From the IMG/VR virus record IMGVR_UViG_3300020021_000003, positions 1,877-65,876 of that record: a stretch of 64,000 nucleotides of DNA, one strand, 5' to 3'. Below the pieces are notes generated by a model. That model did no database searches. It had not been told where the DNA came from and saw only the letters and a list, made by a program, of their open reading frames with translations. The stretch is from a virus. Both the position numbers and the translations under genes were made by a program. This document shows positions 27,137-40,059 of the stretch, in pieces. Position 1 is the first letter of the stretch. The number at the start of each line of letters is the position of its first letter.

Positions 27137-28714
27137 TTAACTTCGTCTGCGATCGTAGAAAGGATTATTGCTCTGTTCTATTTCCTCGGTAACACTGACT
27201 GGAATAACACTCAGAGCAATAGCAAGAGAGTCACAATAGTCATCATGAGCGTTGGCTTCCTTAGGAGCTTCCGCTAACATATAGGGTCCTTCGAATTTCA
27301 CCTGAAGGTCTGACATCTGCTGAATGAAGTTTCTGTACGTACGCAGTGAACGTGTCTTAGCATGTGCTGGCCAGGTGAGCTTGGCTCGATCCAGCATTTC
27401 ACGAAGGTACTTCCAACGAGATGACTGCTCTGCTCTTTGGGAAGAGACATCAAGAATCTCTATATGCGGTAGAAGAACTCTGAGACGGGATATAACTACA
27501 TCTCCCACCCCACCTTCATCTACACCGATTGCCCATACATTATATCTGGATACGAACTCTACTATCCTGTGATACTGTTCTTCCCAGCCAAGACCCTGTA
27601 GATCCATCCAATTGAGAATACGAGTATCGTAGTAGCCGAATTCATCTCTGCGTTCCCAGTCCACGAATACAGCAGTGACAATAGTACTGTCGATCTTTCG
27701 TGCCGGGTCTATACCTATGACCACAGGAGTCATGTAGTAGTTCTTCTCTGTCTGCATCGTTCTGTCCCCGAGTTCCTCAAGACGCTCGGAGGTTGTGAAC
27801 ATTCCCTGTTCCAGAAGCCACATGAGACGGTAGGACAGCTTGAATTCATCAGAGTCATAGCCCATACGAAGCATGTCACCAGCTACGTGCTTCTCGTATC
27901 TCTTGTTCCACTTTCCTACCTCACGGTAGTCAGCTTCGAAGTGATTGGATCTAGCGCCGCGCTTTGTGGCATTTCTCTTGTTGTGCTGGATCTCTCGGTG
28001 GAATACACCCTTCTCGTAAGTAGGTGTACCTGTCATGACAAAGGTTCCACGAGTGGATGCGAGCATAGGACGGATGGACTTGTCCACTACTCGCTGGTCT
28101 GCCACCTGTGCTTCGTCAAGGAGGGCAATATGATATGTCTTACCTTCAATAGAAGCTCTGGGGTGAGCCGTCTGACGACGCACGATAGAACCGCACTTTT
28201 CCAGACGTAGTTCTGATCCTCTGCCCTTTACTCGTTCATCGATCTCAGGGTCAAGAAGGATAGCCTGTGCTCTCTCGCTGGTAATCATAGAGACGATACG
28301 GGAGAACAGAGTCTTTGCCATGTCGTCTACTGGTGCGAAAGCTCCAACCCATACGCCTTCCTTGAAATCGTCCAGCCATTCATTGAACGGTTCTACCTTG
28401 GCCAGACGGGGAAGCATGATCATCAGAGTGGCAACCGTGGCTGCCACTGTCTCAGTCTTACCGCTCTGACGGCTGAAGAGGGCTGTTATAGTGGCTCCGT
28501 CATTGATGATGACCGATTCCATCAACCGCGCCGCAAAGGGTCTCTGGTAGCCGTACAGCGGGTGTCCTGACAGCTTGTCCGCGAACATCAGCAAGCGTTC
28601 GACAATCGCATCAATGAATGCCTGTGAATGCGGGTCGATATCTATCTTGGTCGTAGCAAGAGCTTCCCGTTCCTCAGAACTCAGCTCATCTAAGTCTTCC
28701 TCATACATGTTCAT
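27137..28714 (-). CDS. Terminase large subunit
   Basis: Walker A FSRQSGKT, Walker B ALLDEAQ, TGTP, nuclease VVIGIDPA and HDDYCDS. Confidence 0.95.
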   Translation of the reverse strand: MNMYEEDLDELSSEEREALATTKIDIDPHSQAFIDAIVERLLMFADKLSGHPLYGYQRPFAARLMESVIINDGATITALFSRQSGKTETVAATVATLMIMLPRLAKVEPFNEWLDDFKEGVWVGAFAPVDDMAKTLFSRIVSMITSERAQAILLDPEIDERVKGRGSELRLEKCGSIVRRQTAHPRASIEGKTYHIALLDEAQVADQRVVDKSIRPMLASTRGTFVMTGTPTYEKGVFHREIQHNKRNATKRGARSNHFEADYREVGKWNKRYEKHVAGDMLRMGYDSDEFKLSYRLMWLLEQGMFTTSERLEELGDRTMQTEKNYYMTPVVIGIDPARKIDSTIVTAVFVDWERRDEFGYYDTRILNWMDLQGLGWEEQYHRIVEFVSRYNVWAIGVDEGGVGDVVISRLRVLLPHIEILDVSSQRAEQSSRWKYLREMLDRAKLTWPAHAKTRSLRTYRNFIQQMSDLQVKFEGPYMLAEAPKEANAHDDYCDSLAIALSVIPVSVTEEIEQSNNPFYDRRRS

Positions 28715-33282: not shown

Positions 33283-34350
33283 TTACTGCTCCGCAGACGG
33301 ACGAACCAACTCCCACACCTTCTCTGAGATGCTCTTGTTATCCAGTAGGGAGAACATGAAACCCTGGTACTGCATTCCCTTTACCCTCTGTGCGAAATCC
33401 TTTCGAGTTCCACCATCAGGAAACTTCTCAGTGTTCTGCATGTCCCAGACTGCTAATTGGAAGTCGTGCTTGATGGCCTCAATCGTCATCATGTAGTCAT
33501 AAGCAATGGCACTGTATGTCTTACTCAACCAGGCATGCCACTCGTCCGGAACGATAGCGTAAAGCTCTGGAAGAGTCTTGCCGTCCTTCATGTTCTCCCA
33601 GATACGACGCTCTGTCAAGCCAGTCACGATCTTGTGCAGAAGCACGTAATCCCCTTGCTTGATCTTGATTCGGTAGTCCAACTCGGGGAAGTACACTACG
33701 AACCCCTCAGCATTGGTGCGTGGAGGGGCCTCCAATGCCTCTGTAAGCGTCTTGTAGGGGAAGGTAGTGGTCTTGGGACCATACCACTCCTCCACGTCCT
33801 TAGCGGCCCGTACAGCGCCTGTTACAGCATTACGTGCAGCCAGCAGCACAAGGTCTTCCCGATCCCCATAGTTCAGGACCACTCGGTTCCCAGGATAGAT
33901 GATCTCTACCAGGTAGGTCTCCTCATACCACAGATCAAGCTTGTAGTCCTTGTGCGGAGTGTGCAGGAAACTGGTTGCCCAGACTGCCTGATCGGAAGTA
34001 AAGGAACCGCGAGTCGCTACGTGCCATTCGCCCTCGTACTCAAAGACAATACCGAGTGAACCATCCATCTTGTCGGTAACCTCAACTGTATAATCCTTGA
34101 GGAATACGTCAGACTGGTTCTGGCCATAGTTCAGGAACTTGTCGAAAGGCCGCGCGACAATATTGAGCTTATTATCGATAATCAGATCTCGACACTGACG
34201 AGTTACCTCGTTCCACACGTTCTCGAACTGAGACTTTTCCGTATAATTGACAATAGAGATAGGCAGATTCGGGTGCTTGTTGACCCGAATATACTTCTCA
34301 AACAGCATCATCCGGTACAAGTCCATCGGCATAATATCCCATAGCTTCAC
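33283..34350 (-). CDS. RNA ligase (T4 Rnl1-like)
   Basis: NIVARPFDKFLN, motif I KMDGSLG, ATRGSF and motif IV EGFVV...IKIK. Confidence 0.92.
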   Translation of the reverse strand: MKLWDIMPMDLYRMMLFEKYIRVNKHPNLPISIVNYTEKSQFENVWNEVTRQCRDLIIDNKLNIVARPFDKFLNYGQNQSDVFLKDYTVEVTDKMDGSLGIVFEYEGEWHVATRGSFTSDQAVWATSFLHTPHKDYKLDLWYEETYLVEIIYPGNRVVLNYGDREDLVLLAARNAVTGAVRAAKDVEEWYGPKTTTFPYKTLTEALEAPPRTNAEGFVVYFPELDYRIKIKQGDYVLLHKIVTGLTERRIWENMKDGKTLPELYAIVPDEWHAWLSKTYSAIAYDYMMTIEAIKHDFQLAVWDMQNTEKFPDGGTRKDFAQRVKGMQYQGFMFSLLDNKSISEKVWELVRPSAEQ

Positions 34351-35337: not shown

Positions 35338-35510
35338 CCCTTCCCATTTGAGCATCGCCGAGAGGCTTGGGAAGGGGTCGATTAAGCACTATACTAACAT
35401 CTCCAGAGCGTTCGTGCAACCGATCACTTCTCTGGTCTCAGACTAGCATTTTTCCTGAACATGGCAAAACCGGCTGCACGTGGTTGTCAGGCAGGCGAGT
35501 GAATCACCTG
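35338..35510 (-). ncRNA. Putative pseudoknotted ncRNA between Ser tRNAs
   Basis: 9-bp hairpin, plus a 10-bp helix pairing into the loop of a 6-bp hairpin. Confidence 0.4.
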
Positions 35511-35792: not shown

Positions 35793-35868
35793 AGCGCATA
35801 GTGGGAATCGAACCCCTTGTAACGGCTTTGCAGGCCATCTCCATCCCAGACGAATTAACTCTACGCGC
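35793..35868 (-). tRNA. tRNA-Cys(GCA)
   Basis: Loop CTGCAAA, U73, enlarged irregular D region. Confidence 0.75.
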
Positions 35869-35891
35869 ATAAAGGATTCTGTAGAATCCAG

Positions 35892-35971
35892 TGGAACTGC
35901 TGGGATTCGAACCCAGGTGCTGATAACTTCCGACTTGCGGTTTTTACTACCAGACGAAACCAACCAGCCCC
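35892..35971 (-). ncRNA. Mini-tmRNA (tRNA-like domain only)
   Basis: GGGGCTG-GTT-GGTTTCGTC 5' end, G3:U70 pair, no D stem, helix CTGGTAG/TTATCAG, canonical T arm and A73. Confidence 0.7.
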
Positions 35972-35972
35972 G

Positions 35973-36041
35973 CTATATTACACACAGGACAATTACCAGC
36001 AGAACTGCTAGTACAAGCCACAGTGCTTCAAGTGCGTTCAT
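35973..36041 (-). CDS. 22-aa hydrophobic peptide
   Basis: AAGGAGG RBS, MNALEALWLVLAVLLVIVLCVI. Confidence 0.5.
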   Translation of the reverse strand: MNALEALWLVLAVLLVIVLCVI

Positions 36042-36131
36042 ATTATCCTCCTTGTAGATGCAGGGTACCAAGCCTCCTGCTCCTGGGTCAACGAATAACG
36101 TTCCATCTCCGTAGAAATCCCAGCCCTTACG

Positions 36132-36202
36132 TACCCGCTGAGGGAATCGAACCCCCGTCTTTGGTGTGTAAAACCAAGGCCCTCCCATTAGACGAAGCGG
36201 GC
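36132..36202 (-). tRNA. tRNA-Val(TAC)
   Basis: Loop TTTACAC, cloverleaf. Confidence 0.88.
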
Positions 36203-39958: not shown

Positions 39959-39989
39959 AGTTTTGCCTCCTATGTCAATGAATAAAACG

Positions 39990-40059
39990 TGGAGCTAGTC
40001 GGAATCGAACCGACTGCAACGACTTTGCAAAAGTAGTCCGCTACCTCAGCGTTAGCCCC
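39990..40059 (-). tRNA. tRNA-Ala(TGC)
   Basis: G3:U70, loop TTTGCAA, short D loop. Confidence 0.8.

Follow-up and report, generated by a model that had tools for sequence, protein, structure and literature searches.

The 80-nt stretch at 35892-35971 on the minus strand of the window (the whole 64,000-nt stretch of DNA that was analysed) is a genuine and conserved gene for a tmRNA that consists of the tRNA-like domain only (TLD-only), of the type found in Mycobacterium phage DS6A. Nothing that tmRNAs conserve outside the coding and pseudoknot region has been lost from it, and purifying selection maintains it across a clade of ~110-kb Streptomyces-type phages as well as in many unrelated phages. 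New with respect to published accounts are its fixation throughout the BRock-like phages, five of them cultured, and the family-wide selection on alanine identity. While one phage TLD-only tmRNA, that of DS6A, had been in print as a curiosity, genes of the same kind are now seen throughout a clade; the class occurs widely and is hardly ever annotated. Bacteria rescue ribosomes and tag proteins mainly by trans-translation, and to our knowledge the handling of this pathway by phages has barely been studied. By analogy with a published experiment, we consider it on balance probable that the gene provides a functional tag-less tmRNA which competes with the host tmRNA, so that SsrA tagging is suppressed.

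Structure and classification of the 80-nt element

Read on the minus strand, the sequence is as it had been quoted in the original prediction; it starts with G1 (35971) and runs to the discriminator A (35892). The acceptor stem is formed by the 5′ strand GGGGCUG (35965-35971) and the 3′ strand CAGUUCC (35893-35899), which shares the 3′-terminal segment 35892-35899 with the discriminator A. Its 7 pairs join positions 1-7 to positions 73-79, the discriminator being position 80. The stem carries the alanine determinant G3:U70 (G3 at 35969, U70 at 35895), as predicted, and next to it a second wobble pair, G4:U69. A 3-nt linker and a tmRNA-type D-loop analogue (GUU GGUUUCG U, 35954-35964), which was aligned to the Rfam consensus GGaUUCGA and has no D stem, lead into the 5′ strand of helix 2 (P2a; CUGGUAGU, 35946-35953). 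This strand pairs with 35920-35927. The 3′ side of the helix lies in 35917-35929, which comprises AA, the helix 2 3′ strand (GUUAUCAG) and the junction CAC. Between the two strands there is an A-rich internal loop (AAAAA) and a cap hairpin, CCG-CAAGU-CGG (35930-35945). The T arm, CUGGG-UUCGAAU-CCCAG (35900-35916), precedes the acceptor 3′ strand. The cap stem, the 3′ strand of helix 2, the T arm and the acceptor 3′ strand are supported by covariation, as detailed below. Single-sequence minimum free energy folds mis-fold the window copy and are uninformative; comparative analysis was used in their place.

The 5′ signature, the D region and the T arm had thus been parsed correctly. The helix-2a-like stem is present, but it has 8 bp (positions 19-26 with 45-52, C19-G52 to U26-G45) and not the 6 bp that had been assumed. 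The middle of the molecule had been described as only about 20 nt long, and these nucleotides are the A-rich internal loop and the 3-bp hairpin. An A-run followed by GCA had been taken to resemble a resume context. As had also been stated, no stop codon follows, and reading on from GCA reaches the 3′ end. The resume interpretation has to be given up, however, since the stretch is the conserved internal loop of helix 2 together with the cap hairpin, the stem of which covaries.

In a search of the whole window, the Rfam model for tmRNA (RF00023) matches 35889-35971 on the minus strand with 48.4 bits (E 4.5e-16), which passes the gathering score of 47 only marginally. The match spans model positions 1-374, with 296 of these replaced by 8 nt, and in this alignment the mRNA-like domain (resume codon, tag frame and stop) is absent from 35892-35971. 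Compared to the one-piece tmRNA (SsrA) that this model describes, the element shares the tRNA-like domain, the helix 2a/2b junction and the alanine identity, while it is devoid of the resume codon, the tag frame, the stop and the four pseudoknots (PK1-PK4). Only the capped 3-bp hairpin separates both strands of helix 2; it stands, with the internal loop, where pseudoknot 1, the tag template and pseudoknots 2-4 would be. Of helix 2, segment 2a and its internal loop have been kept as well as the beginning of 2b; the acceptor with G3:U70 and the A, the D analogue and the T arm are retained too. A tmRNA model search had been named as a check of the original prediction, and its result supports the central claim of a phage-borne tRNA-like domain without mRNA-like domain and pseudoknots.

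CCA is not encoded at the 3′ end of the element. As only 1 of the 30 tRNA genes of the window phage has CCA in the last 9 nt examined, addition of CCA by the host is the rule for this phage.

Neither ARAGORN, applied to the window, nor the Rfam tRNA model calls anything at 35892-35971. The absence of such calls bears on the reading as an unusual decoding tRNA-Ala, which we regard as extremely improbable. The element does have alanine identity elements, and the phage tRNA-Ala(UGC) weakly matches our own covariance model R1 (29.6 bits), which was built from nine clade members with a hand-set structure. However, there is no anticodon arm; the central loop has 4-5 nt, is variable, and sits on a stem of 8 bp that is interrupted by an internal loop. 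In addition, the phage already has a tRNA-Ala (39989-40059).

Two-piece (permuted) tmRNA was also considered and rejected. Its acceptor piece (RF04321), which occurs in marine phages such as Melnitz (PMC9004378), is likewise a short phage RNA with tRNA-like elements. In the window element, in contrast, the strands follow each other in standard order and the acceptor strands are joined by a closed hairpin. RF04321 gives a truncated match of 21.1 bits (cut-off 47), and a coding piece of a two-piece tmRNA was not found.

The closest known counterpart comes from Mycobacterium phage DS6A, which is listed as a "TLD only" tmRNA in a survey by Hudson, Lau and Williams (2014, PMC4131195; tmID 11587). 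The entry is repeated in a 2025 tmRNA database paper, which adds ~65-bp plastid and jakobid mitochondrial forms (PMC11915505). The original prediction cited only the mitochondrial tag-less forms and overstated its novelty, as the DS6A RNA has the same architecture. We located the DS6A element at 28478-28560 (Rfam 43.2 bits), with hypothetical genes on one side and a gene for DNA polymerase III on the other. When both are aligned end to end under R1, the window element scores 78.0 bits and the DS6A element 61.5 bits. Both are phage-encoded RNAs of ~80 nt with a G3:U70 acceptor, a discriminator A, a D analogue and a T arm, in unpermuted order, and in both helix 2 is closed by an A-rich loop and a short cap hairpin (CCGCACGCGG, CCGCAyGCGG-type). 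A tag frame and pseudoknots are missing from both, the hosts are actinobacterial, and the phages have no SmpB. The two differ in their D analogue and junction (GGUGGUCGAC...GCAC in DS6A, GGUUUCGUC...GCAC in the window) and in their genomic setting. DS6A is a 60-kb Hnatkovirus in which the copy stands alone among protein genes, whereas the window phage is a BRock-like phage of ~110 kb in which it belongs to an array of 30 tRNAs.

The tag-less organellar tmRNAs (jakobid mitochondria and ~65-bp plastid genes of Mallomonadaceae) have also kept the tRNA-like domain alone and, according to the database paper, are assumed to act together with SmpB but not to tag (PMC11915505). They are, however, vertically inherited and replace the only tmRNA of the organelle, while the host of the phage keeps its full-length tmRNA.

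Conservation in BRock-like phages and the surrounding tRNA array

The window belongs to a 101-kb IMG/VR virus record that is about 90% complete. The DNA runs that hold most of the locus are soil metagenomes only, and these probably represent the source sample; among the runs listed, no RNA run holds the locus. The TerL protein is 78-79% identical to those of the Streptomyces phages BRock (Borockvirus), Alone3, LuckySocke, pSt2308 and GiJojo, and the order of the tRNA genes matches that of GiJojo and LuckySocke. A Streptomyces-like actinobacterium is therefore the most likely host.

Homologues of the same length, which the original prediction had proposed to look for, were found as copies of 80-84 nt in all of the relatives checked, namely 12 IMG/VR genomes and 5 cultured Streptomyces phages, and none of these 17 relatives has a full-length form. 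The prediction had itself raised the case of an assembly deletion of a full tmRNA. This is excluded, since the 17 relatives have been sequenced independently and all are short. In the cultured phages, the Rfam tmRNA matches have a length of 80-81 nt and score 57.4, 57.1, 64.5, 61.0 and 36.8 bits. Ten of the 12 related IMG/VR records match Rfam at E <=1e-10, and the remaining two match R1 at 83.7 and 57.7 bits. With 48.4 bits, the window copy is among the weaker Rfam scorers (8 of the 12 IMG/VR relatives score 47-66 bits).

A motif scan of IMG/VR revealed that a relative with a complete genome of 111 kb (G001) has a copy in syntenic position, and this copy differs from that of the window by compensatory changes. 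One pair of the T stem is changed from U-A to G-C, and two pairs of helix 2 swap between A-U and G-U. In the acceptor, G4:U69 is replaced by G4:C69 while G3:U70 is retained.

The element has escaped annotation in BRock, LuckySocke, Alone3 and DS6A, where no annotated feature lies under or beside it. In GiJojo, gene 44 ("hypothetical protein"; L133 1499-1741; PP725410.1 17023-17265) starts 2 nt upstream and runs across the mini-tmRNA, and is probably a mis-call over the RNA gene.

According to ARAGORN, the tRNA array of the window phage extends from 34.6 to 44.7 kb and contains 30 tRNAs, all on the minus strand. The upstream neighbour of the mini-tmRNA is tRNA-Val(UAC) (36131-36202, minus strand), which was called by ARAGORN. 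An atypical tRNA-Cys(GCA) follows 23 nt downstream (35794-35868, minus strand). The order Val, mini-tmRNA, (Cys), Ser(GCU) is the same in G001, GiJojo and LuckySocke, the three relatives for which neighbours were examined. The tRNA-Cys(GCA), which adds Cys to the tRNA set of the window phage, was recognized by its cloverleaf fold and by its G001 homologue, which ARAGORN calls as tRNA-Cys. Its D stem is long and its acceptor extended, and it is missed by both ARAGORN and the Rfam tRNA model, its best Rfam match being tRNA-Sec with 27.5 bits. An unannotated copy of this tRNA exists in GiJojo.

Just upstream of the mini-tmRNA there is an ORF of 22 codons (35973-36041, minus strand), which codes for a hydrophobic peptide (MNALEALWLVLAVLLVIVLCVI). 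An AAGGAGG Shine-Dalgarno sequence is found 5 nt before it, with a weak match to a promoter (36071-36042) further upstream, and the TAG stop of the ORF lies about 1-2 nt before G1 of the mini-tmRNA. No counterpart of this ORF is visible in the ~120 nt upstream of the G001 mini-tmRNA. About 280 nt past the last tRNA of the array, the window codes for a T4 Rnl1-type RNA ligase (33283-34350, minus strand; PF09511, 56.3 bits), which suggests repair of tRNAs against anticodon nucleases.

A wider family of mini-tmRNAs and its origin

A looser motif, which fixed nothing but the D analogue, the T loop and the GGGG at the 5′ end, with a spacing of 20-50 nt, matched at least 120 IMG/VR contigs; the matches listed contain 98 distinct sequences. 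The pattern demanded neither closure of the acceptor nor G3:U70, the discriminator A or CCA. Among the matches listed, 94 of the 98 distinct sequences form an acceptor stem of 6 or 7 bp at the distance expected, and of these 94, again among the matches listed, 93 have G3:U70, all have the discriminator A and 37 encode CCA. The length to the discriminator ranges from 62 to 92 nt among these 94 listed sequences, with a mode of 79-80. The alanine identity (G3:U70, A73) is under strong selection across the family.

MAFFT alignments misplace indels in the linker and the loop, and the sequences were realigned with R1. The resulting alignment has 93 rows (91 mini-tmRNAs and two tRNA-Ala). Shuffled alignments have 65.2% of their cells paired, this alignment 94.7%; its covariation score of 0.667 (0.13 when shuffled) was reached in none of 500 shuffles. 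Pairing drops to 45-54% when the partners are slid by one to three columns. Covariation is seen in each of the four helices. The acceptor is paired to 97.4% over the 93 rows, with double changes in 4 of 7 pairs; helix 2 is paired to 91.4%, with all 8 pairs covarying; the cap stem is paired to 86.8% (double changes in 3 of 3 pairs) and the T stem to 99.6% (4 of 5 pairs). Within the acceptor, pairs 4-7 take four to six pair types, while 92 rows have G-U at pair 3:70 and a single row has G-C, so that the predicted alanine determinant is kept almost throughout the family. The GG and UCG of the D analogue are near-invariant, and a cap motif, AAAgCCGCAyG(u)CGG, is common to DS6A and most phage copies. 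Because the R1 alignment is fitted to the structure, 16 sequences were also aligned by MAFFT without such fitting and given to RNAalifold, which found the same four helices, with compensatory changes in 13 of 18 pairs.

The base that follows UUCG covaries with the second base of the 3′ junction (G-X-C ... G-Y-A-C). This was ambiguous on the fitted alignment, and the counts were obtained by direct parsing of the pattern: X/Y is A/G in 59 sequences, U/C in 7, to which type the window belongs, and C/U in 3. The covariation points to a tertiary or non-canonical pair that is conserved within this domain of the RNA, the tRNA-like one.

When ARAGORN was applied to the 94 sequences among the matches listed, one was called as tmRNA and three others as tRNAs. 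Standard phage annotation therefore misses the class. In a full-text literature search we found no published description of a widespread class of phage mini-tmRNAs.

The genomic surroundings vary. A tRNA is found within 500 nt of the copy at only 15 of 94 loci, and no protein family is common to the neighbourhood of more than 6 of 94 loci (both among the matches listed). The RNA is thus a self-contained unit without a dedicated phage protein partner. The top neighbour families with a Pfam match are DnaB, capsid, portal, terminase and protease. An attP fragment was considered as well and rejected, as no integrase is among the top neighbour families that were checked.

Other blastn leads in cultured phages of Pseudomonas, Synechococcus, Gordonia and Caulobacter are partial and reach only 23-31 bits on R1. 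They resemble other tmRNA forms and were excluded from the mini-tmRNA count. Several of them, from Pseudomonas phage SM1 (L275 236-334), Synechococcus phages S-CAM1 and S-SSM7 (L276, L277) and Gordonia phage GodonK (L279), score 26-31 bits and represent unannotated stretches with a T arm like that of tmRNA and an acceptor 3′ strand at their end. In the alignment of SM1, this end reads ...CUCCACCA, and a matching 5′ GGGG strand is missing. These stretches may be pieces of permuted tmRNAs or belong to another form.

The distribution of the cap motif bears on the origin of the class. One Streptomyces genome carries a mini-tmRNA in addition to a full-length tmRNA of 387 nt, and the full-length RNA does not have the AAAGCCGCAUG cap motif, which is common to phage minis from hosts of many phyla. 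A recent deletion of the host ssrA gene was rejected as origin on this ground, and the class looks like an old mobile family rather than the result of repeated recent ssrA deletions.

The same observations leave little room for a non-functional remnant of a full-length phage tmRNA, which we consider very improbable, as we do the loss of the central region by an assembly deletion. The Rfam score of the window copy is barely above the threshold, ARAGORN is silent at the site, and full-length tmRNAs do exist in other actinophages, an example being the tmRNA feature of 280 nt in the annotation of Streptomyces phage Wakanda. A remnant would, however, not be expected to be uniformly short in independently sequenced relatives and to have compensatory changes in all helices, and the missing cap motif in the Streptomyces full-length tmRNA speaks against a recent deletion in the host gene.

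TLD-only tmRNAs are not restricted to phages. About 25 species-level genomes of Candidatus Poribacteria have a conserved TLD-only tmRNA of 82-83 nt in addition to a full-length tmRNA, as in chromosomes G014 (4004650-4004735; L264 1501-1586) and G015 (4711312-4711396; L265), with about 25 further Poribacteria loci among L200-L258. The Rfam scores are 70.1 and 64.6 bits for the mini-tmRNAs and 184.7 and 177.3 bits for the full-length tmRNAs. In two species, the mini-tmRNA is located between a Na/Ca-exchanger gene and the gene for a PLP-dependent decarboxylase. Given these common flanks, it looks chromosomal and vertically inherited rather than prophage-borne. The cap hairpin differs from that of the phage class. 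This chromosomal copy is new relative to the published tmRNA papers (PMC4131195, PMC11915505).

Probable competition with host tmRNA and alternative roles

A TLD-only molecule has been reported to strongly inhibit tmRNA in Escherichia coli (Mao et al. 2009, as described in PMC4131195 and PMC11915505). Titration of SmpB is offered there as a mechanism, with a "perhaps", and according to PMC4131195 the inhibition did not need charging with alanine. Competition with the host tmRNA agrees with this experiment, the only one in print, and appears to be the best-supported consequence of the mini-tmRNA gene.

In such a scenario, the mini-tmRNA would be transcribed together with the tRNA array and trimmed by the tRNA-processing enzymes of the host, which would also add CCA as it must for the tRNAs of the phage. 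Host AlaRS would then charge the RNA with alanine, and SmpB and EF-Tu of the host would bind it. An SmpB gene is absent from the window phage as well as from G001, GiJojo, LuckySocke and DS6A, and therefore any SmpB that is involved must be that of the host. The mini-tmRNA would compete with the full-length tmRNA of the host for SmpB and for stalled ribosomes, and SsrA tagging would be suppressed during infection. Proteins made from broken or cleaved messages, including those of the phage, may thereby escape tag-directed degradation. That the phage benefits from a block of tagging is our inference only.

Two features of the window copy count against this explanation, namely its rather low Rfam score and the second wobble pair G4:U69 beside G3:U70, which may affect charging by AlaRS. 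In addition, a simple titration of SmpB does not account for the strictness with which G3:U70 and A73 have been retained, because the published inhibition needed no charging. The family-wide conservation of these two elements is a concrete clue that charging matters, and the published titration model leaves it unexplained.

For this reason we give substantial weight to a more active role, even though it seems the less probable one. Mini-tmRNAs charged with alanine would, together with SmpB and EF-Tu, enter stalled ribosomes, take over the nascent chain and add a single alanine. The chain might then be released by a stop-independent hydrolase or by drop-off, so that ribosomes are recycled and the protein remains unmarked, as has been proposed for the jakobid mitochondrial tmRNA. 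This would account for the conservation of G3:U70 (92 of 93 aligned rows), of A73 (94 of 94 among the matches listed) and of the acceptor and T helices beyond what titration of SmpB needs, and the database paper describes tag-less organellar forms which co-occur with SmpB (PMC11915505). The phage invests heavily in translation, with 30 tRNAs and the Rnl1-type RNA ligase, and G001, its closest relative, has an ArfB-like GGQ gene within the same tRNA array. However, a search of the window genome and of 16 other genomes of the clade did not find this GGQ gene. A peptidyl-tRNA hydrolase (Pth) gene was not found in the window phage, G001, GiJojo, BRock and DS6A, and there is no known route to release a peptidyl-TLD without a tag frame. 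Furthermore, the sole printed experiment reports inhibition.

The GGQ gene of G001 (L274 1354-1698, minus strand, corresponding to ~80.3-80.6 kb of G001:C1) lies between tRNA-Leu genes. It codes for a protein of 114 aa with an RF-1 domain (PF00472, 58.5 bits), which resembles the peptidyl-tRNA hydrolases ArfB/ICT1. No GGQ/RF-1 gene outside G001 was detected in this set of genomes.

If the reading as a productive rescue RNA were to hold, which we can only put forward tentatively, the mini-tmRNAs would be a large overlooked class of phage RNAs, with the Poribacteria gene as chromosomal counterpart, that are charged, enter stalled ribosomes with SmpB of the host and end translation with a single alanine. 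The strict conservation of the alanine identity would then mean that the ribosome is their site of action. Phage proteins would be protected and ribosomes recycled when host RNases or anticodon nucleases cut messages. The RNA would then be a phage counter-measure against the ribosome-rescue pathway and not a passive sponge for SmpB. For either this reading or competition with the host tmRNA, the cultured phages BRock, GiJojo, LuckySocke, Alone3 and pSt2308 provide tractable systems for studying how a phage blocks or redirects SsrA tagging.

Roles outside trans-translation, such as punctuation of the transcript for RNase P and RNase Z or a decoy for nucleases or defence proteins that recognise the shapes of tRNA or tmRNA, seem unlikely to us, if less so than a remnant. 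The element does lie inside a tRNA array, directly behind the small ORF and shortly before the next tRNA, and there are predicted defence systems that contain SmpB-like domains (PMC11090510). The low number of copies with a tRNA nearby (15 of 94 among the matches listed) also indicates units that function on their own. For punctuation, however, there is no need for G3:U70, A73, a tmRNA-specific D analogue and the junction motif of helix 2, and ordinary tRNAs already serve this purpose in the array.

An antisense partner was considered too and rejected, as the longest match of the mini-tmRNA core elsewhere in the phage genome has 11 nt, which is typical of shuffled controls. A further RNA element of the array is an abiF motif (RF03085, 39.6 bits; cut-off 37), which is located between two tRNA-Ser genes (window 35339-35374, minus strand).
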